Shown here piece by piece: positions 1,320-64,000 of a DNA stretch of 64,000 nucleotides (the stretch's first letter is position 1; the number at the start of each line of letters is the position of its first letter). The notes under the pieces were generated by a model. It made no database searches and had not been told where the DNA came from. It saw only the letters and a program-made list of their open reading frames with translations. Location of the stretch: the NCBI GenBank assembly GCA_947375105.1, contig CANCET010000002.1:10471-74470 (forward strand). The letters run 5' to 3'. The DNA comes from Sphingomonadaceae bacterium (GTDB taxonomy: Bacteria > Pseudomonadota > Alphaproteobacteria > Sphingomonadales > Sphingomonadaceae). A program made the translations under genes and the position numbers.

Positions 1320-2435
1320 CTAAACCGAAGCCGCAAACATCGGATAATCGGTATAGCCACGCGCATCGCCGACATAGGCATGGTCCATATCCGCCAGCGC
1401 GAGTGGATGCCCGCCGCGCATGCGCATCACGAGATCGGGATTGGCGATATAGGGCCGCCCGAACGAGACCGCATCGGCCTTGCCAGCCGCGATGCAGGCA
1501 TTGGCTGCCGGGGCATCGAAGCTACCGTTCTGAATCACGACGCCCCGGAAAATCGCACGGATGCGCTCGATGACCGGATTATCGGGCCGCTCCATGAAGC
1601 CGGAAGCAATCGGCTCGATCAGGTGAATGTAGGCGATGCCGAATTCCTGCGCCAACGCTGCGACGGCATCGGCCAGCGCATCGGGGTTTTCATCGCCCAT
1701 GCCCTTGCGCGCGCTGGTCGGGCTGATGCGGAGACCGACCCGCCCGGGGCCGACCGCTGCCGTCACGGCTTCCAGAACCTCGCGCAGCAGGCGCGAGCGA
1801 CCTGCCAGGTCACCGCCATAAGCATCGCTTCGATGGTTGGCGTTCGATTGCAGGAACTGGTCGATGAGATAGCCGTTGGCGGCATGGATCTCCACGCCGT
1901 CGAACCCGGCGACCAGCGCATTCGCGGCGCCGGTACCATAGGCTTCGACCGCATGGGCGATATCCGCATGGGTCATCTCGCGCGGGACGACGTAAGCCTT
2001 CATCGGCAGGAAACCGCCCACATAGTCCGGCGGTGGCGGCGCAAACGTCTGCCCTTCCCCAGCGATGGGCGATGGGCCCAGCGGCTGCGCACCACCGATG
2101 TAATCAGGCAGCACCAGGCGCCCCATGTGCCATAGTTGCGCAAAGATCTTCCCACCCGCTGCATGGACAGCGCCGGTGACCTGCGCCCAACCCGCGACCA
2201 TGTCCGCAGTCCAAAGACCAGGCACCCGGTACCAGCCCATCCCGAGCGGATCGACCGCGGTCGCTTCGGAAACGATCAGCCCGCAATCGGCGCGCTGCGC
2301 ATAATACTGCGCCATGAGCGGCGTCGGCACATTGCCAGGCGTCGCGCGGGCGCGAGTGAGAGGGGCCATGATCACCCGGTTGGGCAAGGTCAGCCCGCCA
2401 AGCTGCAGCGGCTGGAACAACGCATCGAGACTCAT
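1320..2435 (-). CDS. Old yellow enzyme family ene-reductase (NemA/XenB-like)
   Basis: Start trimmed to MSLDALFQPLQLGG; NRVIMAPLTRARA, QLWHMGR, EIHAANGYLIDQF (HxxN-x-Y), GRPYIANPDL. Confidence 0.92.
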   Translation of the reverse strand: MSLDALFQPLQLGGLTLPNRVIMAPLTRARATPGNVPTPLMAQYYAQRADCGLIVSEATAVDPLGMGWYRVPGLWTADMVAGWAQVTGAVHAAGGKIFAQLWHMGRLVLPDYIGGAQPLGPSPIAGEGQTFAPPPPDYVGGFLPMKAYVVPREMTHADIAHAVEAYGTGAANALVAGFDGVEIHAANGYLIDQFLQSNANHRSDAYGGDLAGRSRLLREVLEAVTAAVGPGRVGLRISPTSARKGMGDENPDALADAVAALAQEFGIAYIHLIEPIASGFMERPDNPVIERIRAIFRGVVIQNGSFDAPAANACIAAGKADAVSFGRPYIANPDLVMRMRGGHPLALADMDHAYVGDARGYTDYPMFAASV

Positions 2436-2454
2436 AGGATCAGGCTGCTCGCAG

Positions 2455-3306
2455 TCACGTGTTTCTCCATGTGATTTCGCCTCCATCGAGCACCTTGCGG
2501 TTGCCGACATAGGCGGCAAAGTGCGCGGCTGCGCCTTCACGTTGCCAGATCTGGAATTCCAATTCGTCGCCGGGCAGCACCACGCCCGAAAACCGGCACG
2601 CCAGCCGCGAGAGGGCAGCCGGATCGCGCCCCACTGCGCGCGAAACCGCCACACCGGCGATGCCAAAGCTGGCAAGGCCCTGCAGAATCGGTCGTTCAAA
2701 ACCAGCCGCGCGCGCCACTTCCGGATCGAGGTGCAGCGGGTTCCAGTCGCCCGAGAGGCGATAGATCAGCGCGCCACGCGGGCTTGTCGCAAAGCTGACG
2801 GTCAGATCAGGGACGCGATCCGGTAATGCGGTTTCGTTGCGCGGCGCGGGCGATCCGCCAAAACCGCCATCCCCTCGCAACATCAGCGTCTGATGCAGGC
2901 GGCAGTACATCGCACCGCTGGCAACGTCGAAAATCCGCCGTTCGAGCACCAGCACCGCGCCTTTGCCCTCACCCCTGTCGGTCAGCGAGAGAACTTGCGC
3001 CTCACCCCGAACACATGCCTCGGGCGGCAGGGGCGCTATAAAATCGGCAGACTGCGCCGAATGGACCAGTTTGGCAAAATCGACGCCAAGTGCGGGATCA
3101 CGGATCCACATCCCTGGCGTACACAGAGTGACAGCAAACGTCGGGAGGACCGCCAGGCTCCGCTCGTCGAGGAAGGCGAGAACGGCCGTATCGAGGGCAT
3201 CGCTGCCCAGCCCCACGCCCAGCGCATACAGGATCGCGTCGCGCGGCACATACGTCTGCTCCGGCTGACCGAAATCATACGCCAGAATAGCGGCGGGATC
3301 GATCAC
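2455..3306 (-). CDS. Double hot-dog (R)-specific enoyl-CoA hydratase (MaoC / hydratase-2 type)
   Basis: Hydratase-2 motif YRLSGDWNPLHLDP, PILQGLASFG, N-terminal ILYALGVG. Confidence 0.9.
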   Translation of the reverse strand: MIDPAAILAYDFGQPEQTYVPRDAILYALGVGLGSDALDTAVLAFLDERSLAVLPTFAVTLCTPGMWIRDPALGVDFAKLVHSAQSADFIAPLPPEACVRGEAQVLSLTDRGEGKGAVLVLERRIFDVASGAMYCRLHQTLMLRGDGGFGGSPAPRNETALPDRVPDLTVSFATSPRGALIYRLSGDWNPLHLDPEVARAAGFERPILQGLASFGIAGVAVSRAVGRDPAALSRLACRFSGVVLPGDELEFQIWQREGAAAHFAAYVGNRKVLDGGEITWRNT

Positions 3307-4217
3307 ACGGGATCCCAGCTGAAGACCTCGGCCGAACGGTGTAGCGGATAGAAGTCGTTCGCGAACTGAGGGAAGACCCGGTCGGCAATGGCTTCAGGCG
3401 TCCAGCCCTCGGCGGTGTGGGCAGCGCGCATCGGGCGCGGCTGCGAGAACAGGAAAATCTCGTTGTTGCGCACGCCGAAGATCTGTCCGGTGACCTTGGC
3501 AGCCCCGTCGCCGCACAGGGCGACGCACAAGGGCCCGATCTTGTTAGCATCAAGCTTCTTGAGACCGTCCACGCGCTTCTGCTGCTCGGGCGTATCGGTC
3601 GGAATGGAGTCGATCATGCGTGTCCACGCGAACGGTGCGACGGCGTTCGAACGCACGCCGAAGCGCTGCATGTCGAGTGCGATCGACTTTGAAAGTCCGA
3701 CGATCCCCAATTTGGCCGCAGAGTAATTGGCCTGCCCGAAATTGCCGATCAGTCCGCTGGTCGAGGTCATATGGACATAGGCGCCGCTGCCTTGTTCCTT
3801 GAAAAAGGGCGCTGCTGCACGGCTGGTGTTGAAGCTGCCCATGAGGTGCACTTCGATCACCGCGCGGAAATCGTCCGGGCTCATCTTGTGGAAGTAGACA
3901 TCGCGCAGATTGCCCGCGTTGTTGACCACCCCGTCGATCCGGCCGAAACTGTCGATGGCCGCCTTGATCATGCGGCCCGCACCGAGCCAGTCGGACACGC
4001 TGTCGTGGTTGGCGACAGCCTTGCCGCCTGTCGCGCGGATTTCCTCCACGACCTGCTCAGCGGGCGAGCCTTCATCCTGGCCTTCACCGCTCAGCGCAAC
4101 ACCAAGGTCATTGACGACCACCGCCGCCCCCGCCTCAGCCATAGCGAGCGCGATCCCACGCCCCACGCCGCGCCCCGCGCCGGTGACCAGCACCGCCCTA
4201 CCGTCCATCATCCCCAT
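3303..4217 (-). CDS. SDR resembling the MFE-2 3-hydroxyacyl-CoA dehydrogenase domain
   Basis: TGAGRGVGRG, VVVNDLG, NNAGNLRD, GNFGQANYSAAK; start at MGMMDGR; 4-bp overlap with the hydratase gene. Confidence 0.88.
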   Translation of the reverse strand: MGMMDGRAVLVTGAGRGVGRGIALAMAEAGAAVVVNDLGVALSGEGQDEGSPAEQVVEEIRATGGKAVANHDSVSDWLGAGRMIKAAIDSFGRIDGVVNNAGNLRDVYFHKMSPDDFRAVIEVHLMGSFNTSRAAAPFFKEQGSGAYVHMTSTSGLIGNFGQANYSAAKLGIVGLSKSIALDMQRFGVRSNAVAPFAWTRMIDSIPTDTPEQQKRVDGLKKLDANKIGPLCVALCGDGAAKVTGQIFGVRNNEIFLFSQPRPMRAAHTAEGWTPEAIADRVFPQFANDFYPLHRSAEVFSWDPV

Positions 4218-4227
4218 GGATTTTTCC

Positions 4228-5406
4228 TCAATAGCTCTTGGGCAGGCCGAGCACTTTCTCGGCAATGAAGCACATGATCAGCTGCTCGGTGATTGGCGCG
4301 AGGCGGGTCAGCGCGCTTTCCCGGTAGAGCCGCTCGACGTGGTACTCCTTGGCATAGCCAAAGCCGCCATGGGTGGCGACCGCCTGCCACGCTGCATCAT
4401 GGCAAGCGCGCGCGGCGAGGAACTTGCACGCATTGGCTTCGGCCCCGCAGGGCAGGCCCTGGTCATAAAGGCGCGCAGCCTTTTCGACCATCAGCCAGGC
4501 GCTCTCCAGATACATCCACTTTTCCGCAAGCGGGTGCTGGATACCCTGGTTCATGCCGATCGGCCGATCAAACACCACGCGTTCCTTCGCATAGTTCACG
4601 CCCCGCCGCAGCGCATCGCGCCCGATTCCAATGGCCTCGGCGCCGATGAGGATGCGTTCGGGATTAAGGCTGTGGAGGATGTAGCCGAAGCCCTTCCCTT
4701 CCTCGCCGATGCGGTCCTCGTCAGGAATGAACAGCCCGTCGATGAAGATCGCATTCGAATCCACCGCCTTGCGGCCCATCTTGTTGATCAGTCGCACATC
4801 AATCTTGGACCGGTCGAGATCGGTGTAGAAGATCGTGATGCCATCAGTCGGCCGGGCGCAGTCCTCGAACTTGGCCGTCCGAGTCAGAAGCATGATCTTG
4901 TTCGCGACTTGGGCGGTCGAGGTCCAGACCTTCTGGCCGTGGACCACATAACCCCCCGGCACTTTCTCGGCGAACGTCTTGATCCGCGTGGTGTTTAGCC
5001 CAGCGTCGGGCTCGGTAAAGCCGAAGCAGCACTGGTCCTCGCCCGAAACGAGCCGCGGGACCCAGCGCGCCTTCTGCTCCAGTGTGCCCTCCACCACGAT
5101 GGGGTGCGGGCCGAACAGGTTGATGTGGATGGTCGAAGCCGCCGCGAACCCGCCGCCGCAAGCCGCGACCTCACTCATCATCGTCATTGCCTCGGTCACG
5201 CCGAGGCCCGAACCGCCGAATTGCTCAGGCATGGTAATGCCAAGCCAACCGCCATCGGCCATCGCGCGGTGAAATTCGCGCGGGAACTCACCGTCATCAT
5301 CGCGTGCGAGCCAATAGTCATCGCCGAACGGCGCACAGGCGGCACGAACGCCTTCGCGGATAGCCTGAAGGTCTTCCTCGGTGGGAAGCGAGCGAGCTTG
5401 GGTCAT
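4228..5406 (-). CDS. Acyl-CoA dehydrogenase
   Basis: FGFTEPDAGLN, GQKVWTS, LNPERILI, THGGFGYAKEYHVER. Confidence 0.93.
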   Translation of the reverse strand: MTQARSLPTEEDLQAIREGVRAACAPFGDDYWLARDDDGEFPREFHRAMADGGWLGITMPEQFGGSGLGVTEAMTMMSEVAACGGGFAAASTIHINLFGPHPIVVEGTLEQKARWVPRLVSGEDQCCFGFTEPDAGLNTTRIKTFAEKVPGGYVVHGQKVWTSTAQVANKIMLLTRTAKFEDCARPTDGITIFYTDLDRSKIDVRLINKMGRKAVDSNAIFIDGLFIPDEDRIGEEGKGFGYILHSLNPERILIGAEAIGIGRDALRRGVNYAKERVVFDRPIGMNQGIQHPLAEKWMYLESAWLMVEKAARLYDQGLPCGAEANACKFLAARACHDAAWQAVATHGGFGYAKEYHVERLYRESALTRLAPITEQLIMCFIAEKVLGLPKSY

Positions 5407-6278
5407 GCGGTTTCTCCGACGGCTGCCAGCGTCTTAAGCGCGGCCTTGAGGTGCGGGATATCGAACATCTTGCCGTCGATCCCGAGCGTACCGGCGTCGG
5501 GATTGGCGGCGAATGCGTCCACGATCCGGCGGGCATGCGCGACCTCCTCGTCTGAGGGGGTGAAGCAGCGGTTGATCGTGGCGACCTGATCAGGATGGAT
5601 CGCGATACGGCCCAAGAACCCGTCGCGACGGGCCCGGCGGCAATCGGCCTCAAGCCCCGCCCCGTCGCGAAAATCAGCATAAAGCGTATCGACCGGCATC
5701 ACTCCGGCCGACGCCGAGGCGAACAGGCACAGAGAGCGCGCAAAGCGATAGGGCTCGGTCCACTGCCCATCCGGTTCCTTGTTGTCCGTCGCCCCGATGG
5801 CGGCCGCAAGGTCTTCCGCGCCCCACGTCAGGCCAATCAGGCGCGGATGCGGCGGGGTATAACTGCCGAGCGCAAACATCGCCTGCGGGGTCTCAGTGGC
5901 GACGACCATGATCTTGACCGTACCGGGCGCCATTCCGGCGGCGGCCTCCAGCGGATCGATCATCCCTGCAATCGTCGCGATATCGTGCGCACCATTGGCC
6001 TTGGGCACAAGAATGCCAGCAAGTCCCGGGCGCACCACTGCGGCGAGATCATCGGAGGTAAGACTGGTATCTAGGGGATTGACCCGCACGAACAAGCTGG
6101 CCTCGACATCGTCTGCCTCGCACAGCCACCCCGCCACGAGATCACGTGCAACGGCTTTCATCGACGGCGCAACCGCATCCTCCAAATCGAGGATCAGCAC
6201 ATCCGCGCCAGCCGTGCGCCCTTTTGCGAACTTGCGCTCGCTGTCTCCGGGCACGAATAGAAGCGAGCGCAACCTCAT
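5403..6278 (-). CDS. CitE-family acyl-CoA lyase (citramalyl-/malyl-/HMG-CoA lyase-like)
   Basis: RSLLFVPG, ILDLEDAV, FVRVN, GAEDL, IHPDQV, DGKMFDIPH; start trimmed to MRLRSLL. Confidence 0.9.
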   Translation of the reverse strand: MRLRSLLFVPGDSERKFAKGRTAGADVLILDLEDAVAPSMKAVARDLVAGWLCEADDVEASLFVRVNPLDTSLTSDDLAAVVRPGLAGILVPKANGAHDIATIAGMIDPLEAAAGMAPGTVKIMVVATETPQAMFALGSYTPPHPRLIGLTWGAEDLAAAIGATDNKEPDGQWTEPYRFARSLCLFASASAGVMPVDTLYADFRDGAGLEADCRRARRDGFLGRIAIHPDQVATINRCFTPSDEEVAHARRIVDAFAANPDAGTLGIDGKMFDIPHLKAALKTLAAVGETA

Positions 6279-6727
6279 GCCGGCTTCTTCATCATCAGCG
6301 CGTTGCGCACTGTGCGGCATACCACTTCATTGCGCTGGTTAAGCCCGATGTGTTCGAAGGTGACGATGCCCTGCGTGGGCCGCGATTTGCTCTCCCTAAG
6401 CTCCAGCACCTTCGTTTCAGCACGGAGCGTATCGCCCGAGAAGACAGGCTTGGGGAAGGTCGTATCGGTCATCCCGAGATTGCCTACGGTGGTGCCCATC
6501 GTGGTGTCCTGCACGCTCAGCCCAATGACCAGCCCGAGCGTGAAGATCGAGTTCATCAGCGGCTGGCCAAACTCGGTGCCTTCGCAATAGGCGTGATCGA
6601 TATGGATCTGAGCCGGATTGTAGGTCAGCGAGGAAAACAGGCTGTTCTCATAATCGAGCACAGTCTTGCGGACTTCGTGCCGGAACACCTGCCCAACGCT
6701 AAATTCGTCAAACCAAAGGCCCGCCAT
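6275..6727 (-). CDS. MaoC-family dehydratase (single hot-dog, itaconyl-CoA hydratase-like)
   Basis: GLWFDEFSVG, TYNPAQIHID, FPKPVFSGDTL; overlaps the CitE gene start. Confidence 0.85.
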   Translation of the reverse strand: MAGLWFDEFSVGQVFRHEVRKTVLDYENSLFSSLTYNPAQIHIDHAYCEGTEFGQPLMNSIFTLGLVIGLSVQDTTMGTTVGNLGMTDTTFPKPVFSGDTLRAETKVLELRESKSRPTQGIVTFEHIGLNQRNEVVCRTVRNALMMKKPA

Positions 6728-6740: not shown

Positions 6741-7940
6741 TCAGTTCAGCCGGCCAAGGATCGCGACGGCGGCCACGCTGTTGAACGGCGAACCGCCAAG
6801 GTTGTGCGTGAGGCCGAAATCGACCTTATCCCGCTGGCGGTCGCCTGCCCGGCCCTGAAGCTGCGTATAGACCTCATAGGCCATGCGCAGGCCCGAAGCG
6901 CCAACTGGATGGCCAAAGCACTTGAGCCCGCCATCGAGTTGGCACGGAATTGCGCCGCCGCGATCAAAACGCCCGTCGAGAATGTCGGTCGGCGCGCGGC
7001 CTTCGTCCGACAGGCCGAGGTCCTCCATGGTCACCAGTTCGGTGATCGAGAAGCAGTCATGCACTTCGGTCATGTCGAGTTCGGCGCGCGGGTCACGGAT
7101 ACCGGCTTCGGCATAGGCGCGCGCGGCGGCGGCGCGGGTATTGGGCACCGTGGCCCCATCCCATGCGCCGAACTGCATTTCCCAGCCATTGCTCGCCGAA
7201 AGCTGGATCGCCTTGATCGTGACCGGGTCAGCCTTGCCGAGCGCGCGCGCGATCTCGGGTGTGGTGACGATAGCCGCCGCCGCGCCGTCCGAAACCCCGC
7301 AGCAATCGAACAGGCCGAGCGGATCGGCGATCAGCGGCGCGTTTAGGATCTTGTCCATGTCGACCGTGCCGCGCAGGTGCGCTTTGGGCGACAGCGCACC
7401 GTTCTGGTGGCTCTTCCACGAAACATGCGCCATCGCACGTTTGAGATCGCCCGGCGCGATGCCGTGCCGCGCGGCATAGGCACCAGCCAGCTGCGCAAAA
7501 GTCCCCGGAGCCGAACCATAAGGCATCCACAGGTCATTCTGAACGCCCTTGGTGCGCAGCGGCAGCCCACCGTAACCGGTGTCCTTTAGTTTCTCGACGC
7601 CAATCGCCAGCGCGATATCCACTGCGCCCGAGGCGACGGCGTAAGCCGCACCGCGCAGCGCCTCGGTGCCGGTGGCGCACATGTTTTCGACGCGGGTCAC
7701 CGGCACCTTGTCCAGTCGCAGTGCATGGGCTGCCGGGAGTGCACTGTTGCCGACATTGATATCATCGAGCGCATTTCCGACCCAGGCGGCTTCGATGCGC
7801 GCGCGCTCGATCCCGGCATCGGCCAGCGCTTCGAGAAACGCCTCGACCATCAACCCGTCCGCACCCACATCCCAGCGCTCGCCAAACCGCGTGCAGCCCA
7901 TGCCGACAATGGCAACCTTGTCGCGAATTCCCGTGGCCAT
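6741..7940 (-). CDS. SCP2-type thiolase
   Basis: RVENMCATG (catalytic Cys), EVHDCF, GHPVGASG, THNLGG. Confidence 0.9.
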   Translation of the reverse strand: MATGIRDKVAIVGMGCTRFGERWDVGADGLMVEAFLEALADAGIERARIEAAWVGNALDDINVGNSALPAAHALRLDKVPVTRVENMCATGTEALRGAAYAVASGAVDIALAIGVEKLKDTGYGGLPLRTKGVQNDLWMPYGSAPGTFAQLAGAYAARHGIAPGDLKRAMAHVSWKSHQNGALSPKAHLRGTVDMDKILNAPLIADPLGLFDCCGVSDGAAAAIVTTPEIARALGKADPVTIKAIQLSASNGWEMQFGAWDGATVPNTRAAAARAYAEAGIRDPRAELDMTEVHDCFSITELVTMEDLGLSDEGRAPTDILDGRFDRGGAIPCQLDGGLKCFGHPVGASGLRMAYEVYTQLQGRAGDRQRDKVDFGLTHNLGGSPFNSVAAVAILGRLN

Positions 7941-9539: not shown

Positions 9540-9659
9540 ATGACCATTTTCGCCGACTACGCGCATGCAGGCCTGTCCGCCGTGGTCGCTGAAGGTCAGA
9601 ACTTTGCGGGGCACGGGCCTGCTTCCAACAACCAATTCCTGCGCCTGAAGGCTGCCTGA
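9540..9659 (+). CDS. Small 39-aa ORF (MTIFADYAHAGLSAVVAEGQNFAGHGPASNNQFLRLKAA), function unknown
   Basis: SD-like GGAGAGG just upstream, mostly G/C-ending codons, TGATG overlap with the next gene. Confidence 0.5.
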   Translation: MTIFADYAHAGLSAVVAEGQNFAGHGPASNNQFLRLKAA

Positions 9660-10896: not shown

Positions 10897-11376
10897 ATGG
10901 TCCAGAAAAATCTCGATTCCAGTCTGCGCTTCGGTTTCCTCATTCACGATGTCTCGCGCCTGCGCCGAATCGTGGTTGATCGTGCGCTCAAGCCGCTCGG
11001 GTTGACGCGCTCACAGTGGTGGGTGCTGGCTTTCCTTTCGCGCCGCGACGGCATGACCCAGACCGCGCTGGCGGCAGACCTGGATCTGACCAAAGTCGCG
11101 ATTGGCGGCCTGATCGACCGGATGGAATCAGGCGGGTTCGTCGAACGGCGCGCCGATGAACGTGATGCACGCGCACGCCGGGTCTTCCTGACCCGCGCCG
11201 GGCTCAAGCTTGTCTCGACCATCCGCGAAAGCGTCGACGCGGTCGAGGCCGATATTCTGGCCACAGTCAGCGAGGACGAACTCGACGCAGCGGCGCTCGT
11301 GCTCGTGAAAATCAAGAACCGCCTGCTCGATATGGCGGGCGGCGAAGCAGAGGGCGGGCAGGACCTGGATCTCTGA
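10897..11376 (+). CDS. MarR-family transcriptional regulator
   Basis: LGLTRSQWWVL, GMTQTALA, LIDRME..VER..DERDARARRVFLT; start trimmed to MVQKNLD. Confidence 0.9.
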   Translation: MVQKNLDSSLRFGFLIHDVSRLRRIVVDRALKPLGLTRSQWWVLAFLSRRDGMTQTALAADLDLTKVAIGGLIDRMESGGFVERRADERDARARRVFLTRAGLKLVSTIRESVDAVEADILATVSEDELDAAALVLVKIKNRLLDMAGGEAEGGQDLDL

Positions 11377-11416
11377 CCGCCATACCTGAATGCAAAAATG
11401 CCGAACGGAGGAATAC

Positions 11417-37179: not shown

Positions 37180-37184
37180 TCCCC

Positions 37185-52613: not shown

Positions 52614-52614
52614 C

Positions 52615-54830: not shown

Positions 54831-54831
54831 G

Positions 54832-57607: not shown

Positions 57608-58354
57608 TCAATTCGACCATCCACCGTCAATTATGTGGCACTGGCCGGTGGTGAACCGGGCTGCGTCGCTTGCCAGATAGAGCGCGAGGCTGGCGATCTC
57701 GTCAGCCTGCCCGAACCGGCCGAGCGGCTGGCGCGCAGCAAAGGCCGCGCGGGTCGCTGCATAGTCACCGCTTGCCAGCATCCGCGCTTCGAGCGCTGAT
57801 GTCTCGATCGTGCCGGGGCAGATCGCATTGGCCCGGATGCCTTGCGCGGCGTGGTCTGCGGCCAGCGCCTTGGTCATGCCGATGATCGCCGCCTTCGTTG
57901 CGGCGTAGGCAAACCGATCAGGCACCCCGCGCACGGAACTGGCGACCGAGGACATCGTGATGATCGATCCGCCCCCCCGCACGATCATCCCTGGCAGCAG
58001 CGCGCGGACCATGCGGAACATGGCGGTGACATTAAGATCGAAGGCCTGATCCCAATCCGCATCGCTGCAATCGAGCACTGTGCCATAAGGGACCGTGCCC
58101 GCGCAGAGGAATGCGATGTCTACCGCGCCCGCCGCCCGCGCGAACGCATCGATCGCTGCGGCATCTGTCAGATCAAAGGCAAAGGGTTCGCACCCGCACG
58201 CTGCTTCAAGCGATGCGAGGGCAGCCGCATTGATATCGACCGCCAGCACACGCGCACCCTCGCGCGCAAAGCGTTCGGCACTGGCCCTGCCGATCCCCTG
58301 CCCGGCGCCGGTAACGACCGCCGTCTTCCCATGCAGGGCACCGGGAACGGTCAA
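57608..58354 (-). CDS. SDR (BDH2 / keto-deoxy acid dehydrogenase-like)
   Basis: LHGKTAVVTGAGQGIG, YAATK, ICPGTIET, IIDGGW; TTG start overlapping the TetR stop. Confidence 0.85.
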   Translation of the reverse strand: MTVPGALHGKTAVVTGAGQGIGRASAERFAREGARVLAVDINAAALASLEAACGCEPFAFDLTDAAAIDAFARAAGAVDIAFLCAGTVPYGTVLDCSDADWDQAFDLNVTAMFRMVRALLPGMIVRGGGSIITMSSVASSVRGVPDRFAYAATKAAIIGMTKALAADHAAQGIRANAICPGTIETSALEARMLASGDYAATRAAFAARQPLGRFGQADEIASLALYLASDAARFTTGQCHIIDGGWSN

Positions 58355-59031
58355 TAGGGTGATTCCAGCCCGGCCAGCACCATCTCGGCGTAGGTCTTGC
58401 CGATCTCCTCGGCGCTGACATCGCTTTCCGCGGGCCGGAACCAGCGGTGGGTCCACCCGACGATGCCGAGAACACCGTAGGCCACGACCTTGGGCGAGCC
58501 GACGTTGCGGAATGACTTGTCGGCATAACCCTGCTCTATGATCGCAATCACCGCCTCGGACATCTGGCTGTTCAGGTCGCGCATGTAGCGTGACCATTCG
58601 GACCGCTTGTCGCTGACATTGCTGAGGTTCTCGCGGATGTAGATATACATCAGCGGATAATGTTCACCGTAGGACGACATCAGCGCGATGATCAGGTCGC
58701 TGAGCTTGCGGCGCGGGCGCATGTCGCTCGCCCGGATTTTTTGCGCCAGCGCGACATTGCGCTCCACCACGGTGCGGACGATCTCGTCGAAGAGTTCCTC
58801 CTTCGACGAGATGTAGTAGTAGAGCGAGGCCCGATCGATATTCAGCTCGGCCGCAACAGCAGTCATGCTCGCCCGTTGGAACCCCATCCGGTTGAACACC
58901 CGGATCGCCGCTTCGCCGATTTCCTTGCGGCGTTGCTGATGCGAAACGCTGGAATCCTCGCGTGCCGCCGTGCGCCGCTTGCCAATACCACTTTCGGAGG
59001 GTGCCATCATCGGCTTGCCGTCTTTCATCAT
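58351..59031 (-). CDS. TetR-family regulator (KstR2-like C-terminal domain)
   Basis: HTH GFQRASMTAVAAELNIDRASLYYYISSK; GWTHRWFRP; start uncertain (59031-59007). Confidence 0.9.
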   Translation of the reverse strand: MMKDGKPMMAPSESGIGKRRTAAREDSSVSHQQRRKEIGEAAIRVFNRMGFQRASMTAVAAELNIDRASLYYYISSKEELFDEIVRTVVERNVALAQKIRASDMRPRRKLSDLIIALMSSYGEHYPLMYIYIRENLSNVSDKRSEWSRYMRDLNSQMSEAVIAIIEQGYADKSFRNVGSPKVVAYGVLGIVGWTHRWFRPAESDVSAEEIGKTYAEMVLAGLESPY

Positions 59032-59077
59032 GCACCGCCGATTACGCGATAAAACGCGCTTTTTCCAGTTGAACGCA

Positions 59078-59848
59078 TCATCCGCGTGGCCCTCCGGCAA
59101 CGTAGAGCACTTGCCCCGTCACATAGCCCGAACGCGCATCGACAAAGAACGACACGGCGTGGGCAATATCATCGGGCTGGCCAACCCGCCCGACAACCGT
59201 TCCGGCAATCGCCTGCTGCTTCATGTCCTCGAACGTCATGCCGACCCGTGCCGCAACTTCAGCCGTCATCGCGGTCTCTACAAAGCCCGGTGCGACGGCG
59301 TTTGCCGTGATCCCGTAGCGCCCCAGTTCGATCGCCAGTGTCTTGGTCAGGCCCTGCACGCCGGCCTTGGCCGCCGCGTAGTTGGCCTCGCCCAGATTGC
59401 CGAGCGCAGCCGTGCTGGAAAGGTTGACGATGCGGCCCCAGCCCGCGCTGCGCATATGGCCCTGAACCGCGCGGCTCATCAGAAAGGCTCCCCGCAAGTT
59501 CACGTTGATCACCAGATCCCAGTCCGCCAGCGACATCTTGCCGATGGTGCGATCGCGCAGGATTCCGGCGTTGTTGACCAGTATGGTGGGCGATCCGAGC
59601 GCGGCTGCGACATCGGCAACGGCCCGTTCAACCGCCGCCTCTTCAGCAACGTCAGCGCCGACGGCAAAGGCGCGCCGCCCGAGCTGCTCGATCCCACGCA
59701 CGGTATCGTTGCACACCGCCGCATCGAGGTCGAGCACCGCGATATCATGGCCATCCGCCGCAAGGCGCAGCGCGATGCTCGCGCCAATGCCGCGCGCGGC
59801 CCCTGTGACAATGGCAACCCGGTTGGAACTGCCCCCAGCCTCGCTCAT
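59078..59848 (-). CDS. FabG-like 3-oxoacyl-CoA/ACP reductase (SDR)
   Basis: TGAARGIG, NNAGILRD, NYAAAK, VAPGF. Confidence 0.9.
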   Translation of the reverse strand: MSEAGGSSNRVAIVTGAARGIGASIALRLAADGHDIAVLDLDAAVCNDTVRGIEQLGRRAFAVGADVAEEAAVERAVADVAAALGSPTILVNNAGILRDRTIGKMSLADWDLVINVNLRGAFLMSRAVQGHMRSAGWGRIVNLSSTAALGNLGEANYAAAKAGVQGLTKTLAIELGRYGITANAVAPGFVETAMTAEVAARVGMTFEDMKQQAIAGTVVGRVGQPDDIAHAVSFFVDARSGYVTGQVLYVAGGPRG

Positions 59849-61563
59849 GCGGCCTCCACCATGTGGGCCACGGCTTCGGCGAGCATGAACTTGCGCGCCC
59901 GGCCCGAGGCGGTCGTGGGAATTTCGGATGCCTCCACGAAGAACAGATAGCGCGGCACCTTGAACCGCGCGAGGCGTTCGCGAACCAGCGCCAGCAGCCC
60001 CTCATTTGTCACATCGGCTCCGATGCTGCGAACAACTAGCGCAACACCGACTTCGCCCATGCGTTCATCGGGCAGGGGCACGACATGGGCCTGCGCCACG
60101 CCGGGATGCGAGGTCAGCACGTCCTCCACTTCGCTCGGCAAAACCTGCTCCCCGCCGCAACGGTAGGATTCCTTGAGCCGACCTGCTAGCGAGAGATAGC
60201 CATCATGGTCAATGCGCCCCAGATCGCCGGTGCGAAACCAGCCTTCGGCATCGAACGCCGCTGCCGTTTCGGCAGGCTTGTTGTAATACCCACAGGTTAC
60301 GCCCGGCCCCCGCGCGCGCAGTTCGCCCACTGCGCCGGGAGGCAGGGCGGCTTCACTTTCCGGATCAACCACCTTGTATCCAACCAGTCGTCCACCAAGG
60401 GCAGGATCACCAGCCGCGCCCGCATCGCGCAGCCGCCCATTGGAATCGAGCAATCGCTCGAACGGATCATCGGGCCGCGTGACGGTGGAGGATGCCGTGA
60501 CCTCGGTCATCCCGTAGCCAGTCGTGATCTCGGCTACGCCCAGAACGCTGCCGATCTCGCGCCAGATGCGCTCGGGCGCGCGCGCGCCGGAGGAGAGAAC
60601 CGCAGTGAGCGAGGACAGATCGCAAGCAGCTTCCCGCGCCGCATCGATCAAGGCGAGCGTCATGGTCGGCACCAGCAGTGCATCGGTCACGCGGTGGCGC
60701 GCTATCGCCGTCAGCATGTCCGCGGCAGCGAAGCGCACCTGCAGCACGATCGCTCCGCCGACGAACAGCACCGGCAGCATGCCCTCTCCGTAGCCATAGA
60801 CATGGTACATCGGCAGCGCGAAAACGATCCGCCGCCCATCCTCGAACGCGCGCGCCAAGGCGCTGGTGAAGGCGGTGCGCACAACCTGATCGTGGCTGAG
60901 CATCACGCCCTTGGGCGCGCCAGTGGTGCCGGAGGTATAGATGATATCGGCCACGCCGTCCGGGGCCGAGGACGGGAAGGTCAGGCCATCGGCCGCACTT
61001 TGCTCCAGCGCGGCAAAGGGCATGGCCTGTGCGCGGACTGGCTCTGAACCGGCCGGGAACACCACGACCTGCCGCAGCCGTGGTATCGCTTGCCCGCCTC
61101 CGCCCTGCTCCCAGCCCGGCATCAGAGCATCCAGCATGGCGAGCGTATCGAGGCCCCGGAAGCGATCCATGGTGACGAGCATGGCCGCATCGGACTGCGC
61201 AAGCACGTAGCCCAGTTCTGCCTGCCGGTTCAGGATATTGATCGGCACGGCCACCGCACCAACCCGCGCAATTGCGTACTTCAGCGCGACGAATTCGGGA
61301 TAGTTCGCCATGAGCAGCGCGACATGTTCGCCCGGCTTCACCCCCGCCGTCATAAGACCTGCCGCCAGCCGCCGCGACCAGTCCGCCAGTTCGCGATAAG
61401 TCCAGGTGCGTTCGTCGGTGATCACATAGGGCCGGTCCGGGAATTCAGCCGCCGCCGCATCCAGCATGCCGTCCAGCGAGCGCGCGATCCACTTGGGAAA
61501 GCGCGCCGCCAGAGCGGCTTGCCGGTCGGCCACGGACGGCCGCAGGGCAGCCTGCGCGGTCAC
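59845..61563 (-). CDS. Acyl-CoA synthetase (AMP-binding)
   Basis: YTSGTTGAPKG, GYGMTE, FRTGD, ESYRCGGEQV. Confidence 0.92.
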   Translation of the reverse strand: MTAQAALRPSVADRQAALAARFPKWIARSLDGMLDAAAAEFPDRPYVITDERTWTYRELADWSRRLAAGLMTAGVKPGEHVALLMANYPEFVALKYAIARVGAVAVPINILNRQAELGYVLAQSDAAMLVTMDRFRGLDTLAMLDALMPGWEQGGGGQAIPRLRQVVVFPAGSEPVRAQAMPFAALEQSAADGLTFPSSAPDGVADIIYTSGTTGAPKGVMLSHDQVVRTAFTSALARAFEDGRRIVFALPMYHVYGYGEGMLPVLFVGGAIVLQVRFAAADMLTAIARHRVTDALLVPTMTLALIDAAREAACDLSSLTAVLSSGARAPERIWREIGSVLGVAEITTGYGMTEVTASSTVTRPDDPFERLLDSNGRLRDAGAAGDPALGGRLVGYKVVDPESEAALPPGAVGELRARGPGVTCGYYNKPAETAAAFDAEGWFRTGDLGRIDHDGYLSLAGRLKESYRCGGEQVLPSEVEDVLTSHPGVAQAHVVPLPDERMGEVGVALVVRSIGADVTNEGLLALVRERLARFKVPRYLFFVEASEIPTTASGRARKFMLAEAVAHMVEAA

Positions 61564-62489
61564 GCGTCCGCAGGGCCGTCCGAACCGCGCCCAGCTTCGC
61601 GTTCAGCCTCGTAAGCCTCAAGATAGGTGCGATAGGGCGCAAATGGTGCATCGCGCATCCGCACCGCCGGGCGCACCCCGCCCTCGCGCCACACCTTGGT
61701 GAACTCTTCCATGCCCGGCCCGGCAATGCCGAGCGCATCGAGATCGTTGGCCGCAGCCATGCCGGCCTGCATGCCGGCTGCCTCGAACCAGCGGTTGGTC
61801 ACTTCCTTGTGGCTGTAGATCGCATCGAGCGGCACATTGGATACGCGCTTGGCATAGGCCATCGCCACGGCTTCCAGTTCCTCGCGAGGCACTGCCCGGT
61901 TCACCAAGCCCATTTCGGCCGCTTCCACGCCGGTCATGTTGTCGCCGGTGAACAGCCATTCCTTGGTCTTGCGCATGCCGAGATGGATCGGCCACATCGC
62001 GAAGACATGAAGCTCACCCATGGCGCGCGCCTCGGGCTGGCCGAGCAGGGCATCTTCGGCGGCAAAAGCAATGTCGCACACGCCAATCAGATCGAGCGAT
62101 CCGGCAACGCAGTGCCCGTGGACCACCGCGATCGTGCACTGGCGCAGGCGGAACAGGCGCATCCAACGCTCGCGCGAGAGGTGGAACTCGCGACGCGACC
62201 AGACAGGATTACGGCGATGCGGACGACGCTGCACTTCATTGATCGCGCTGTCGGCATCCCAGAGATAGGAGAATTCCTTGAGATCGTAACCCGTGCCGAA
62301 ATGGGCGCCGTTGGCCTTGATCACGAGGACACGCGTCTCGTCGTCATGATCAAGATCGTCCATCACCCGGTCAAGCTCATCGCGCAGCTGCACCGAAATC
62401 GCATTGCCGGTGTGCGGGCGGTTCAGGGTGACTGTCGCGATGCGATCAGCCTTTTCGTAGATCAGGGTTTCAAACTGCATTGCCAGCAT
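61560..62489 (-). CDS. Crotonase/enoyl-CoA hydratase family protein
   Basis: LNRPHTGNA, FGTGYDL, VHGHCVAG, GQPE; canonical GGxE motif divergent; start may be 62480. Confidence 0.85.
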   Translation of the reverse strand: MLAMQFETLIYEKADRIATVTLNRPHTGNAISVQLRDELDRVMDDLDHDDETRVLVIKANGAHFGTGYDLKEFSYLWDADSAINEVQRRPHRRNPVWSRREFHLSRERWMRLFRLRQCTIAVVHGHCVAGSLDLIGVCDIAFAAEDALLGQPEARAMGELHVFAMWPIHLGMRKTKEWLFTGDNMTGVEAAEMGLVNRAVPREELEAVAMAYAKRVSNVPLDAIYSHKEVTNRWFEAAGMQAGMAAANDLDALGIAGPGMEEFTKVWREGGVRPAVRMRDAPFAPYRTYLEAYEAEREAGRGSDGPADA

Positions 62490-62517
62490 CCTTGGTTGTC
62501 ATGTTCTCTGGTCAAGG

Positions 62518-62558
62518 TGGTTATCGCCGAGGAACGCTTTAGTCAACATATACGTTGA
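62518..62558 (-). promoter_or_regulatory. Operator site E (62543-62558) overlapping a putative minus-strand TTGACT-N17-TAACCA promoter
   Basis: TCAACATATACGTTGA; -35 at 62541-62546, -10 at 62518-62523 on the minus strand. Confidence 0.65.
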
Positions 62559-62613: not shown

Positions 62614-62654
62614 TCAACATAAGTGTTGATCCGTGATCGCAGAAGCGATATCCG
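62614..62654 (+). promoter_or_regulatory. Operator site F (62614-62629) overlapping a putative TTGATC-N17-TATCCG promoter
   Basis: TCAACATAAGTGTTGA; -35 at 62626-62631, -10 at 62649-62654. Confidence 0.65.
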
Positions 62655-62661
62655 ATTCGCC

Positions 62662-64000
62662 ATGACGAATGATCCATCCCACGCCACTGTTGACATCGTG
62701 ATTGTAGGCGCCGGCCTCGCCGGACTCCGCGCGCTCTATTCCATGCGCGAGGCCGGATTCTCGGTCACCGTGCTGGAGGCGAGCGACGATCTGGGCGGGG
62801 TCTGGCACCACAATCGCTATCCCGGCGCGCGCTGCGATGTCGAAAGCTACGACTATTCTTACATGTTCTCGCCCGAGCTTGAGCAGGAATGGCGCTGGAG
62901 CGAGCGCTACGCGACTCAGCCCGAAGTGCTTTCGTACATCCGCCATGTGGCGGACCGCTTCGACTTGCGCCCTGCCATCCAGTTCAACACGCGCATGGCG
63001 CGCGCCGAGTTCAATGAGTCCAGCAATCGCTGGTCCGTGACTGCCAAGGATGGCCGCACCTGGGATGCGGGCACTCTGATCATGGCGGTTGGCCAGCTTT
63101 CAACGACCAAGCAGCCCACTCTGCCAGGGCAGGAAAGCTTCACCGGCGCGATCTATCACAGCGCCGCCTGGCCGCGCGAGGGCGTCGATTTGGCCGGCAA
63201 GCGAGTCGGGATCATCGGCACAGGCTCCTCCGGCGTACAGATGACGCCGCTGATAGCCGCCGAGGCAGCGCATCTCACCGTGTTCCAGCGCTCTGCAAAC
63301 TTCAGCATTCCGGCCGCCAATGCACCGATCTCGGCTGAAGAGGACGCGGCGATAAAGGCGGACTATCGCGCCCGCCGCACCCGCGCGCTCAATTCTCCCA
63401 GCGGCCTCGGCTTCTTGCCTAATGGCGCATCTGCCCTCGAAGCCTCGGCAGACGAGCGCCAGGCGGTCTATGAAGCGGCGTGGGTCCGGCTCGGCTTCGG
63501 CTTCGCCCTGGCCTACAAGGATATTCTGCTGGACGAGGCCTCGAACGAGACGGCTGCAACGTTCATCCGCGACAAAATCGCCGCACAGGTCAAGGATCCG
63601 TCGACCCGCGAACTGCTGACTCCGCGCGGCTTTCCCTTCGGTGCAAAGCGGCCCTCGGTCGACAGCAACTACTTCGCCACCTTCAACCGCAACAATGTGG
63701 CACTGGTCGATATCAAGGCCGATCCGATCGAGGCCCTGACCCCGACCGGCCTCAGCACCGGAAATACACACTATCCGCTCGATGTCCTGATCTACGCGAC
63801 CGGATTTGATGCGTTCACCGGCTCACTGCTGCGCCCCGACATCATCGGCCGGGACTGGCTCAGCCTCCGGGACAAATGGTCAGCCGGCCCGGCGACCTAC
63901 CTCGGGCTTGGAGTCTCTGGGTTTCCCAACATGTTTGTTCTGGTCGGCCCCGGCAGCCCATCGCTTCTCAGCAACGTAATCCTCTCGATCGAGCAGCAGG
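62662..64000 (+). CDS. Type I Baeyer-Villiger monooxygenase, 3' end outside window (absent from the supplied ORF track)
   Basis: Manual translation: MTNDPSH..GAGLAG, GGVWHHNRYPGARCD, FTGAIYHSAAWP, GTGSSG, GAKRPSVD, ATGFD; frame still intact at the window edge (GPGSPSLLSNV). Confidence 0.92.
   Translation, partial: MTNDPSHATVDIVIVGAGLAGLRALYSMREAGFSVTVLEASDDLGGVWHHNRYPGARCDVESYDYSYMFSPELEQEWRWSERYATQPEVLSYIRHVADRFDLRPAIQFNTRMARAEFNESSNRWSVTAKDGRTWDAGTLIMAVGQLSTTKQPTLPGQESFTGAIYHSAAWPREGVDLAGKRVGIIGTGSSGVQMTPLIAAEAAHLTVFQRSANFSIPAANAPISAEEDAAIKADYRARRTRALNSPSGLGFLPNGASALEASADERQAVYEAAWVRLGFGFALAYKDILLDEASNETAATFIRDKIAAQVKDPSTRELLTPRGFPFGAKRPSVDSNYFATFNRNNVALVDIKADPIEALTPTGLSTGNTHYPLDVLIYATGFDAFTGSLLRPDIIGRDWLSLRDKWSAGPATYLGLGVSGFPNMFVLVGPGSPSLLSNVILSIEQQ

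Follow-up and report, generated by a model that had tools for sequence, protein, structure and literature searches.

A palindrome-marked catabolic island in a Sphingomonadaceae genome and its probable substrates, branched or cyclic terpene-like ketones, alcohols and acids

Does a 64-kb stretch of a Sphingomonadaceae genome that is crowded with oxygenase, CoA-ligase and beta-oxidation genes encode one catabolic system, and for what kind of substrate? The stretch (64,000 nucleotides, hereafter the window) is C2:10471-74470, on contig CANCET010000002.1 of the 3.6-Mb, 294-contig, 91%-complete assembly GCA_947375105.1. An initial annotation had read it as one undescribed super-cluster for the degradation of alicyclic compounds and terpenoids. 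Gene calls were made from open reading frames (ORFs) judged by the GC3 pattern of this 64% G+C genome, and about 56 products were scanned against Pfam, selected ones against NCBIfam and ten against PDB sequences. With these searches nearly every item of the initial gene inventory was borne out at its place in the window. About 58 catabolic genes occupy the 64 kb, including six AMP-forming CoA ligases, three acyl-CoA dehydrogenases (ACADs), five crotonase-family proteins, seven short-chain dehydrogenases/reductases (SDRs) and four type I Baeyer-Villiger monooxygenases (BVMOs, at about 32409, 42793, 54832 on the minus strand, and 62623), plus a flavin monooxygenase of the FMO type (52615-53931). 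An Old Yellow Enzyme (OYE), an aldo-keto reductase (AKR), an alcohol dehydrogenase with pyrroloquinoline quinone (PQQ) and cytochrome c, a CYP101-family cytochrome P450 and a luciferase-like flavin monooxygenase (LLM) are also encoded. Several families are paired: beta-keto acid cleavage enzymes (BKACEs), PF04199 cyclases, AcetylCoA_hyd_C proteins, APH-kinase triads (kinase, helper and barrel protein) and TonB-dependent receptors (TBDRs).

The window makes up only 1.8% of the genome, yet in a whole-genome count four of the seven type I BVMOs were found inside it, together with both BKACEs, both APH kinases, both barrel proteins, both CoA-transferase-like genes and the sole CYP101. Since the BVMOs, BKACEs, kinases and barrels of the genome are concentrated in this way, the window is no chance pile-up. 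We hold with high confidence that the window is a genuine co-regulated catabolic island.

The palindrome TCAAC-N6-GTTGA is present in five exact copies in the window (at 22404, 32306, 42707, 62543 and 62614), and the rest of the 3.6-Mb genome has no exact copy. They are located in four divergent intergenic regions: TBDR1/SDR3 (22404-22419, TCAACACAGTAGTTGA), TBDR2/BVMO1 (32306-32321, TCAACATATCTGTTGA), SDR4/BVMO2 (42707-42722, TCAACATATGTGTTGA) and the region between enoyl-CoA hydratase 3 (ECH3) and BVMO4, which harbours two copies (62543-62558 and 62614-62629). When one mismatch was allowed, the window contained 8 copies compared to about 1.1 expected, and none of 100 shuffles reached 8. The one-mismatch copies at 10305-10320 and 43124-43139 fall within coding regions; the one at 32115-32130 lies in the same TBDR2/BVMO1 region as an exact copy and, judged by this position, may be a second site. 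The palindrome is kept at orthologous intergenic positions in four other genomes (G031, G034, G035 and G036), of which G034 is a betaproteobacterium, and in relatives a TetR2-like gene often adjoins it. In addition, each operon from about 18.2 to 64.3 kb can be transcribed starting in one of the palindrome-bearing divergent regions. Because the palindromes are unique in the genome, lie in divergent promoter regions and are conserved in four other genomes, these 46 kb or so are probably a single TetR-type regulon, in which a TetR repressor would bind TCAACA-N4-TGTTGA at each divergent promoter region. The initial annotation had pictured a broad-range funnel; one operator common to all operons argues for one inducer class rather than such a funnel. 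The island has two parts, the probable regulon on the right (about 18.2-64.3 kb) and an adjacent acyl-CoA module (about 0-18.2 kb) with a MarR gene.

The synteny check proposed in the initial annotation came out in its favour: the island is conserved across genera, being collinear in Novosphingobium sp. AAP93 and in metagenome-assembled genomes (MAGs), and it is rare, with the barrel-2 marker found in 1 of 400 evenly sampled Sphingomonadales species genomes. A nucleotide search with window 42-62 kb against 30 GTDB relatives gave a single 2-kb match (73% identity) outside the source genome. As nucleotide divergence was too great, protein anchors were used for synteny. The closest named relatives are Novosphingobium MAGs and the isolate Novosphingobium sp. 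AAP93 (GCA_001296055.1), which originates from a freshwater lake (PMC5443232). The AAP93 contig was walked via five exact-protein look-ups; window 8.1-59.2 kb is collinear with it at 80-90% nucleotide identity, and modules A and B adjoin there too. Module B (PQQ alcohol dehydrogenase to BVMO4) is also collinear, at 60-96% amino-acid identity, in one Novosphingobium, one Sphingomonadales and one Sphingorhabdus MAG (G031:C49, G035:C37 and G036:C12). In two of the genomes bearing module B, module A is collinear on other contigs. The betaproteobacterial Sterolibacteriaceae MAG GFS_7836 (G034:C221) carries an essentially complete but rearranged module B (57-80% amino-acid identity) with the same palindrome. 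The 80-kb contig that bears it also holds fragments of module A. Such a copy in a betaproteobacterium indicates transfer between bacterial classes.

Part of the gene content varies between strains. AAP93 has no P450; its CoA-transferase-like gene directly abuts TetR1 (contig LJHZ01000028.1, about 101.7 kb, compared to window 50741-52017), and three metagenome (Logan) contigs show the same P450-less junction. In G035 and G036, a TonB receptor and a P450 are inserted at this junction. Also missing from AAP93 are the 4HBT gene and the right end, SDR6-ligase-ECH3-BVMO4. Two genes are specific to AAP93: a TetR2-like gene between SDR3 and TBDR1 (window 22422-22836 lacks a counterpart) and an aldehyde dehydrogenase gene between AKR and the PQQ alcohol dehydrogenase (window 27177-27313 lacks a counterpart); no aldehyde dehydrogenase gene is left anywhere in the window. 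The LLM was not found at the loci of the distant relatives G031, G034, G035 and G036.

A partial copy was found on the mobilizable MOBF plasmid pSFD01 of Sphingopyxis sp. FD7 (27349-68122), which carries the operons TBDR2-PQQADH-Aldedh and BVMO1-to-Cyc1 (Cyc1 97.7% identical) among insertion sequences (IS) of the IS6, IS3, IS21 and IS110 families. This copy is IS-fragmented, with BVMO1 split into two coding sequences and a ligase truncated beside IS6. The plasmid also bears a second paralogous set, ACAD-ligase-SnoaL-BKACE-cyclase, with its own TBDR and BVMO. In PLSDB, no related cluster was reached from the P450 or barrel 2, whose matches did not exceed 52% and 32% identity, respectively, and only Cyc1 led to pSFD01. 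From the occurrence in 1 of 400 genomes, the strain variation, the plasmid copy and the betaproteobacterial copy we conclude that the island is rare, patchy and horizontally mobile.

For the substrate, the BVMOs are a first guide. BVMO2 (42793-44418, plus strand, given as + below), BVMO3 (54832-56427, minus strand, given as -) and BVMO4 (62623-64000, +, running about 317 bp beyond the window) belong to the clade of steroid monooxygenase (STMO) and PAMO. Scores against STMO and PAMO were 655 and 650 bits for BVMO2 (492 or less for CHMO, CPMO and OTEMO), 630 and 619 bits for BVMO3 (480 or less) and 589 and 583 bits for the full-length BVMO4 protein (447 or less). Matches of the three to CHMO or OTEMO (416-491 bits; OTEMO 466 with BVMO2 and 416 with BVMO3) were far below the 589-655 bits for STMO/PAMO. 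BVMO1 (32409-34349, +), a divergent type I BVMO that scores about 207 bits with both CHMO and PAMO, falls outside the STMO/PAMO clade. Here some 150 extra N-terminal residues precede the FAD fingerprint (window 32325-32800), and all orthologues, among them the 646-aa protein of AAP93, have kept this extension. Between the FMO-type flavin monooxygenase (52615-53931, -; FMO-like 206 bits, ancestral FMO5 179 bits) and BVMO3 lies an HSL-family esterase (53910-54842, -; Abhydrolase_3 247 bits; LipP1 360 bits, above the cut-off of 350). Taken together, STMO/PAMO-clade BVMOs and an HSL esterase speak for ester formation from exocyclic or acyclic (methyl) ketones more than for lactone formation from ring ketones. 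BVMO specificity is not strictly clade-bound, so the clade gives a lean and not a proof.

The P450 (50758-52002, +) belongs to the CYP101 family and is D-like, with 487 bits to CYP101D2, 479 to CYP101D5, 467 to CYP101D1, 407 to P450cam and 350 to CYP101J2 (PDB). At the positions of Phe87, Tyr96 and Phe98 of P450cam it has Ile, His and Leu (alignment to CYP101D2) and does not show the residue pattern of the camphor hydroxylases (A1, D1, D2), a Tyr between two bulky Phe residues. Camphor or ionones are oxidised by every CYP101 enzyme characterised so far, and those preferring ionones lack the inward-pointing Tyr (PMC9655578). The LLM (18564-19757, -) has a Bac_luciferase domain (158 bits) and only 80 bits to 3,6-DKCMO. 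Its label 'LimB-like' derives solely from the automated IMG name 'limonene 1,2-monooxygenase' borne by homologues at 62-89% identity.

Several enzymes that handle CoA esters may act on rings and branches. A BadH-like SDR (11390-12178, +) and a BadI/MenB-family crotonase (12614-13405, +), a candidate ring-opening hydrolase, are adjacent in the left module. The Bad families are their best NCBIfam matches (TIGR03206, 305.2 bits; TIGR03210, 402 bits), and both stay below the equivalog cut-offs of 431.2 and 467.6, so that the BadH/BadI pair of the initial annotation stands as a best match and not as an equivalog assignment. The crotonase matches MenB best in the PDB, and the MenB model (332 bits, cut-off 380) comes behind the BadI model. 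The cyclic-alcohol SDR named in that annotation did not hold up, as SDR3 (22830-23576, +) reached 235 bits with the ChcB1 model compared to a cut-off of 400. A family III CoA-transferase-fold protein of racemase length (56424-57521, -; 365 aa; CoA_transf_3 331 bits) has the M. tuberculosis racemases FAR (156 bits) and MCR (150 bits) as its best PDB matches, followed by YfdE (148 bits) and a CaiB/BaiF protein (147 bits). A CitE/HpcH-type acyl-CoA C-C lyase (5403-6320, -; HpcH_HpaI 118 bits; best NCBIfam match RipC/Ccl, 164 bits, cut-off 375) and a MaoC (R)-enoyl-CoA hydratase (6275-6727, -; RipB/Ich-like, 130 bits, cut-off 340) form a pair akin to itaconate Ccl/Ich, below cut-offs, by which a beta-branched enoyl-CoA could be hydrated and then split in a retro-aldol reaction.

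BKACE 1 (14670-15599, +; PF05853 357 bits) and BKACE 2 (39499-40425, +) both exceed the cut-off of 430 of the 3,5-dioxohexanoate:acetyl-CoA equivalog NF053538 (539 and 517 bits, respectively). BKACE 2 adjoins Cyc1 (40429-41205, +; PF04199 123 bits; 93-98% identical orthologues, including that on pSFD01), a cyclase-family metal hydrolase, in one operon with a protein of the 3-hydroxyacyl-CoA dehydrogenase (3HCDH) family (35101-35973, +; Pfam). Against solved cyclase-family enzymes in the PDB, Cyc1 gave 31 bits to isatin hydrolase, a distant match. The second cyclase, Cyc2 (46023-46904, +; PF04199 93 bits), is next to acyl-CoA ligase 3. A small cluster under LysR control on plasmid pls1 of Burkholderia gladioli (75752-94510) likewise has a BKACE and a cyclase, the latter sharing about 80% identity with Cyc1, together with a VOC-family protein and an FAD oxidoreductase. 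Given this recurrence, BKACE and cyclase look like a cassette that can be reused.

Each kinase triad consists of an APH-fold kinase, a small partner and a barrel protein. In triad 1, a DUF7064 barrel protein (23602-24573, +; PF23212) is followed by kinase 1 (24602-25819, +; PF01636 85 bits) and a 167-aa partner with no family match (25816-26319, +), which is conserved in AAP93 and G031. In triad 2, kinase 2 (46909-47934, +; PF01636 99 bits) is followed by a 155-aa partner (47931-48398, +; conserved gene in AAP93) and the 375-aa barrel protein 2 (48403-49530, +; 81-84% identical orthologues), neither with a family match. The triads may be akin to lvaABCDE of Pseudomonas putida, where LvaAB is one of two precedents for a kinase that removes a non-oxidisable hydroxyl group: an APH-fold kinase and a small partner stand beside an SDR and CoA enzymes. 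Unlike in lva, there is no ACAD of the LvaC type with the island kinases, and a DUF7064 or unassigned barrel protein is found instead. The other precedent for the triads is the 25-hydroxysteroid kinase of Sterolibacterium denitrificans (PMC8449060), and by analogy the shared logic would be ATP-dependent removal of a hydroxyl group that blocks oxidation.

The paralogues had been proposed to handle isomers or enantiomers. Within the pairs, identities are 24-57% (BVMO2, 3 and 4 are mutually 49-57% identical), and Cyc1 and Cyc2 have no detectable similarity. With identities this low, the paralogues are ancient; they are conserved as sets, and a role in different pathway steps suits them better than one in dealing with isomers or enantiomers. 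The same identities rule out that they arose by recent duplication to handle enantiomers. Two satellite loci were observed in the source genome, not in the window: C62:4941-12763 holds a TetR gene, a ligase, a P450 (27% identical), a TBDR and a BVMO1-like gene (43%), and C114:1509-10684 holds paralogues of Cyc1 (65%) and Cyc2 (34%) and an SDR.

The closest characterised relatives of several of these enzymes point to terpenoid or alicyclic chemistry. The racemase-like protein and the hydratase/lyase pair would fit methyl branches, and BadI/MenB-type and cyclase-type enzymes make hydrolytic ring opening, which supports alicyclic chemistry, plausible by analogy. The island is most likely directed at terpene-like branched or ring-shaped ketones, alcohols and acids, although for a substrate of the terpenoid class as such we would put the chances at just under even. 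A methyl-branched alicyclic or isoprenoid substrate appears to fit best, with norisoprenoids (ionones) or abscisic-acid-like acids as attractive candidates, a judgement that we regard as evenly balanced. In bacteria, abscisic acid loses part of its branched side chain, through enzymes that are not known, to give the methyl ketone dehydrovomifoliol, and a Novosphingobium strain grows on abscisic acid (PMC7996341).

From the gene content, families, synteny and operator uniqueness and conservation that were observed, we infer a substrate class, an order of steps and a substrate for each enzyme as follows. An amphipathic methyl-branched alicyclic or isoprenoid alcohol, ketone or acid would be taken up via the TBDRs, alcohols would be oxidised in the periplasm by the quinohaemoprotein dehydrogenase, and in strains bearing it the CYP101D-like P450 would insert a hydroxyl group. 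SDRs, AKR and OYE would interconvert alcohols, ketones and enones. The three STMO/PAMO-type BVMOs, BVMO1 and the FMO could then convert ketones, mainly exocyclic or methyl ketones, to esters, which the HSL esterase and possibly the cyclase-family hydrolases would cleave. The released alcohols would be oxidised and the acids activated by dedicated CoA ligases to enter beta-oxidation, and such rounds would be repeated. At beta-branches, the MaoC hydratase and the CitE-type lyase might yield acetyl-CoA and a new ketone, while alpha-methyl centres would be handled by the racemase-like protein. Rings may be opened hydrolytically (retro-Claisen) by the BadI/MenB-type crotonase and cyclase-family enzymes, free beta-keto acids cleaved by the BKACEs, and non-oxidisable hydroxyl groups removed through the two kinase triads. 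The combination of oxygenolytic and hydrolytic ring opening put forward in the initial annotation is in this respect plausible at the family level, but the BVMO clade favours ester formation and the Bad cut-offs were missed.

A number of observations weigh against this assignment. No window enzyme reaches the equivalog cut-off of a characterised terpenoid or alicyclic enzyme; the NCBIfam models for BadH, BadI, ChcB1 and cyclohexanecarboxyl-CoA dehydrogenase and ligase all gave scores below their cut-offs. None of the BVMOs is closest to a ring-ketone enzyme (CHMO, OTEMO). The P450 and the LLM are accessory to the conserved core, because the P450 is absent from the AAP93 cluster and the LLM from the distant relatives, and no ferredoxin or ferredoxin-reductase family was detected among the window proteins by Pfam scans. 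TonB-dependent uptake is unusual for small volatile terpenoids. Finally, the left 18 kb have no operator motif and a MarR gene instead, and G031 and G036, both fragmented assemblies, have module A on one contig and module B on another. The single super-cluster claimed initially is therefore retained as a regulon of about 46 kb with an associated left module, and not for the operator-less left 18 kb as part of one regulon. A monoterpene funnel of the camphor or limonene type with duplicates for single isomers is disfavoured by the BVMO clade, the missed Bad cut-offs, the accessory nature of the P450 and LLM, and the old divergence of the paralogues together with the one operator.

Within terpene-like substrates, a narrower proposal is a carboxylase-independent route for isoprenoids or apocarotenoids, such as abscisic-acid-like or ionone-like norisoprenoids and algal carotenoid or phytol fragments. 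Pfam scans of the window proteins gave no carboxylase or biotin-carboxyl-carrier family, and with neither geranyl-CoA nor methylcrotonyl-CoA carboxylase the Atu/Liu acyclic terpene pathway is ruled out. For each beta-methyl block, MaoC and CitE-type hydration and retro-aldol cleavage would produce acetyl-CoA and a methyl ketone; an STMO/PAMO-type BVMO, ester hydrolysis, alcohol oxidation by the PQQ dehydrogenase and re-activation by a dedicated CoA ligase would follow. The kinase and barrel modules would remove tertiary or gamma-hydroxyl groups, and cyclase and BKACE would open the trimethylcyclohexane ring hydrolytically. Geosmin and 2-methylisoborneol, terpenoids with an earthy odour, would be related candidates. 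In this specific form we consider the proposal rather unlikely.

Another explanation is the degradation of polyketide-type or aryl-alkyl ketones, that is, acylphloroglucinols, beta-triketones or acetophenone-like plant and lichen products, which we judge to be unlikely. The PAMO/STMO/HAPMO-like BVMOs would turn an acyl side chain into an ester, the esterase would free the phenol and an SDR would reduce the phloroglucinol-type ring; the cyclase-family enzyme would then open it by retro-Claisen cleavage, the 3HCDH-family enzyme would oxidise the product and BKACE would cleave a triacetate-like beta-keto acid. In the phloroglucinol pathway of Clostridium scatologenes, a cyclase-family enzyme (DPGC), a 3HCDH-family dehydrogenase (TfD) and a BKACE (TAL) carry out retro-Claisen ring opening and cleavage (PMC10470551), and the same three families stand in the operon of BKACE 2, Cyc1 and 3HCDH. 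The scores of both BKACEs above the NF053538 cut-off, the BKACE-cyclase pair with VOC protein and FAD oxidoreductase on the B. gladioli plasmid, the PAMO/STMO clade of the BVMOs and the SnoaL-like protein in the operon point the same way, and CYP101D5 also hydroxylates flavonoids (PMC9655578). The likeness to DPGC-TfD-TAL is, however, at the family level only: the island is aerobic and BVMO-rich, its cyclases show no demonstrable close similarity to DPGC (Cyc1 being distant from any solved cyclase-family enzyme), and they lie amid CoA-dependent beta-oxidation genes. Moreover, the BKACE equivalog was defined through activity towards a model acid in vitro, and hydrophobic beta-keto acids as a whole may fall under it. 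Among the window proteins, Pfam scans detected no aromatic ring-cleavage dioxygenase, cupin or decarboxylase, whereas six CoA ligases, three ACADs, the racemase-like protein, MaoC/CitE and the BadI-like crotonase would be superfluous.

The degradation of sterol side chains or of C21 steroids such as progesterone, with STMO-like BVMOs and esterase removing the acetyl side chain and the thiolase/DUF35/MaoC set and MFE-2-type enzymes shortening sterol side chains, is very unlikely in our view. It is suggested by STMO as the best PDB match of BVMO2, 3 and 4, by the SCP2 thiolase with its DUF35 partner, MaoC, MFE-2 hydratase and racemase-like protein in the window, by sub-threshold matches to EchA19, CasG, BaiB and FadD3, and by a Sterolibacteriaceae MAG being one of the carriers. 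In another sphingomonad, Caenibius tardaugens, the pdc cluster (BVMO, TetR, LuxR, LLM) starts progesterone degradation with its BVMO and LLM pair through methyl ketone to acetate ester chemistry (PMC12239570), and shares with the island a type I BVMO, an LLM and a TetR gene. Yet pdc has 4 genes only, PAMO scores nearly equal STMO scores in the island BVMOs, and the steroid-related NCBIfam matches are all far below their cut-offs. The P450 is a CYP101 and not a CYP125 or CYP142. No steroid-nucleus gene was detected by Pfam scans, nor KstD, meta-cleavage or Ipd-type genes in the window, and KshA_C (PF19298) gave no match above cut-off in G000, G031, G034, G035, G036 and G291, a search whose controls gave no positive and whose sensitivity is thus unproven.

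Similarly improbable is the degradation of aliphatic ketones and secondary alcohols from subterminal alkane or lipid oxidation, in which a ketone would pass through an ester to alcohol and acid and into beta-oxidation. PAMO/STMO-type BVMOs adjoining HSL esterase and FMO, the PQQ alcohol dehydrogenase and the many ligases, ACADs, hydratases and 3HCDH-family enzymes would serve such a route; CYP101, BadI/MenB-type crotonase, cyclases, BKACEs, SnoaL, CitE/MaoC, the racemase-like protein and the kinase triads would be superfluous for straight chains. No alkane hydroxylase (AlkB, CYP153 or LadA type) was found among the window proteins in Pfam scans, and the LLM has no LadA match at E <= 1e-10, which rules out LadA-type alkane oxidation. 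That there is no single pathway at all, only a junkyard of independent small operons for unrelated substrates, is equally hard to credit: the separate contigs of modules A and B in G031 and G036, the variation in P450, LLM, aldehyde dehydrogenase, one TetR gene and the right-end module, the IS-fragmented plasmid copy and the three kinds of regulator in the window (MarR and two TetR types) would fit, but one genome-unique operator marks four divergent promoter regions serving the 18-64 kb operons, other genera and a betaproteobacterium share both the motif and the order of the genes, and no transposase or integrase gene was found among the window proteins by Pfam scans.

We return to a terpene-like substrate and compare the island with known terpene and alicyclic systems. 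The cam pathway of Pseudomonas putida comprises CYP101A1, a dehydrogenase, diketocamphane LLMs, a CoA ligase and the type I BVMO OTEMO. Like cam, the island combines a CYP101-family P450, dehydrogenases, an LLM and BVMO genes adjoining CoA-ligase genes, followed by beta-oxidation. Unlike in cam, the P450 is closer to CYP101D, with His at the Tyr96 position, and has no adjacent Pdx/PdR-type partners; the match of the LLM to 3,6-DKCMO covers its N-terminal part only; the BVMOs are nearer to STMO/PAMO than to OTEMO; and P450 and LLM are accessory. The BKACE, cyclase, kinase-triad, PQQ alcohol dehydrogenase and TonB-receptor modules have no counterparts in cam. The limonene pathway of Rhodococcus erythropolis DCL14 uses LimA/B/C, a BVMO and a lactone hydrolase. 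A 25-kb limonene cluster has been proposed in Sphingobium yanoikuyae A-TP (bioRxiv 10.1101/2025.04.30.651573). The island shares with limonene systems an LLM-class monooxygenase, SDR, BVMO and hydrolase, but it gave no limonene-epoxide-hydrolase family match, only a SnoaL-like protein; moreover, the LLM is absent from most related clusters, and the island is larger, with ketone to ester chemistry as its core. As in BadH/BadI of Rhodopseudomonas palustris and Mrc of Castellaniella defragrans, an SDR adjoins a MenB/BadI-family crotonase, with an ACAD and a CoA ligase nearby. In contrast to Bad and Mrc, the island pair scores below cut-offs, has behind it genes for a CoA-transferase-like protein and a BKACE, both absent from Bad and Mrc, and lies in the MarR module, outside the operator regulon.

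The remaining genes of the left module complete an acyl-CoA set. The block continues beyond the left border of the window, where an acyl-CoA synthetase (2-1309, +; AMP-binding 226 bits) is cut at its 5' end, at base 2; its orthologues (67-76% identical) lie beside module A in G031:C30 and G036:C2. The OYE, a NemA-like ene-reductase (1320-2435, -; Oxidored_FMN 252 bits; NemA subfamily 308 bits, cut-off 403), is followed by an MFE-2-type double hot-dog (R)-hydratase (2455-3306, -; MaoC_dehydratas, MFE-2_hydrat-2_N), a 320-aa SDR of 3-hydroxyacyl-CoA dehydrogenase type (3303-4265, -; adh_short; 81-86% identical orthologues in relatives) and ACAD 1 (4228-5406, -; ACAD domains; orthologues at 92-93%). 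Beyond the CitE/MaoC pair lie the SCP2-type thiolase (6741-7940, -; Thiolase_C_1; NF004810 652 bits, above the cut-off of 403) and its 480-aa HMG-CoA-synthase-like/DUF35 OB-fold partner (7940-9382, -; OB_ChsH2_C; weak match of 94 bits to the archaeal-type HMGS model, cut-off 244). On the opposite strand, ACAD 2 (9659-10822, +; orthologues at 83-88%) and the MarR regulator of the module (10897-11376, +; MarR_2; 159 aa in AAP93) precede the BadH-like gene. The 4HBT thioesterase that AAP93 lacks is at 12189-12617 (+; Pfam). Acetyl-CoA hydrolase/transferase-like protein 1 (13426-14667, +; AcetylCoA_hyd_C 125 bits) precedes BKACE 1, and acyl-CoA ligase 1 (15583-17004, +; Pfam) and a 393-aa crotonase-family protein (17001-18182, +; ECH_1, ECH_2) end the module.

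The right part comprises some 41 genes. At its start, a small ABM-type monooxygenase-like ORF (18196-18492, -), the orthologous gene of which carries PF03992 in AAP93, lies downstream beside the LLM, followed by TBDR1 (19851-22256, -; Plug). AKR (26325-27176, -; Pfam), the quinohaemoprotein (PQQ and cytochrome c) alcohol dehydrogenase (27309-29375, -; PQQ 245 bits, Cytochrome_CBB3; TIGR03075 629 bits, above the cut-off of 480) and TBDR2 (29454-32051, -; orthologues at 69-87%) lead to the second operator region. Downstream of BVMO1 are ECH2 (34352-35116, +; NF006100 388 bits, above the cut-off of 282), the 3HCDH-family gene, ACAD 3 (36001-37179, +; orthologues at 90-92%), acyl-CoA ligase 2 (37179-38705, +; Pfam) and the double SnoaL/NTF2-like protein (38702-39502, +; Pfam). 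A glutathione S-transferase (41207-41872, -; Pfam) and SDR4 (41883-42653, -; Pfam, NCBIfam) lie on the other side of the third operator. Acyl-CoA ligase 3 (44420-46033, +; Pfam, NCBIfam) follows BVMO2, and acetyl-CoA hydrolase/transferase-like protein 2 (49547-50761, +; Pfam) follows triad 2. TetR1 (51999-52697, -; Pfam) adjoins the P450. SDR5 (57608-58354, -; Pfam, NCBIfam) is next to TetR2 (58351-59100, -), whose paralogues adjoin palindromes in relatives and which is a candidate repressor for the palindrome. SDR6 (59078-59848, -), acyl-CoA ligase 4 (59845-61563, -) and ECH3 (61560-62489, -), all assigned by Pfam, face BVMO4. In NCBIfam, SDR4, SDR5, SDR6, 3HCDH, ECH2, ACAD 3 and ligases 2-4 had generic or sub-threshold matches that gave no clue to the substrate. 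No tRNA or Rfam match was found in the window, which rules out prophage, integron or RNA features. Past the stop codon of BVMO4 the genes bioA, bioD, bioF and bioB mark the right border. Beyond this biotin operon, 5-7 kb past the right end (C2:79775-81527), we observed a crotonase-family gene and an oxygenase of phytanoyl-CoA-dioxygenase type, the latter judged by eye.

We found no published description of the island, including in the literature on sphingomonad BVMO and CYP101 clusters, on geosmin and 2-methylisoborneol degradation genes and on ionone catabolism; among published terpene clusters of sphingomonads, those that come nearest belong to the LimB/Atu type. BVMO-rich catabolic islands are already known, and what is new here are the unusual accessory modules, the unique operator, the delimited block and the cultured host. 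The kinase and barrel triads, CoA-transferase-like proteins, BKACE-cyclase pairs and the HMGS-like/DUF35 thiolase partner are poorly understood modules. Practical handles are the cultured strain AAP93, with nearly the whole island, and the unique operator with candidate TetR repressors for inducer screening. Should the substrate prove ordinary, the island would still usefully supply three BVMOs of the STMO/PAMO type and a new variant of CYP101D. Sphingomonads are important freshwater degraders of natural and man-made hydrophobic compounds. To our knowledge, most of the genes by which bacteria break down norisoprenoids, abscisic acid, geosmin, 2-methylisoborneol and many alicyclic acids have yet to be identified. 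If true, the apocarotenoid route would supply the missing genes for bacterial catabolism of abscisic acid and norisoprenoids.

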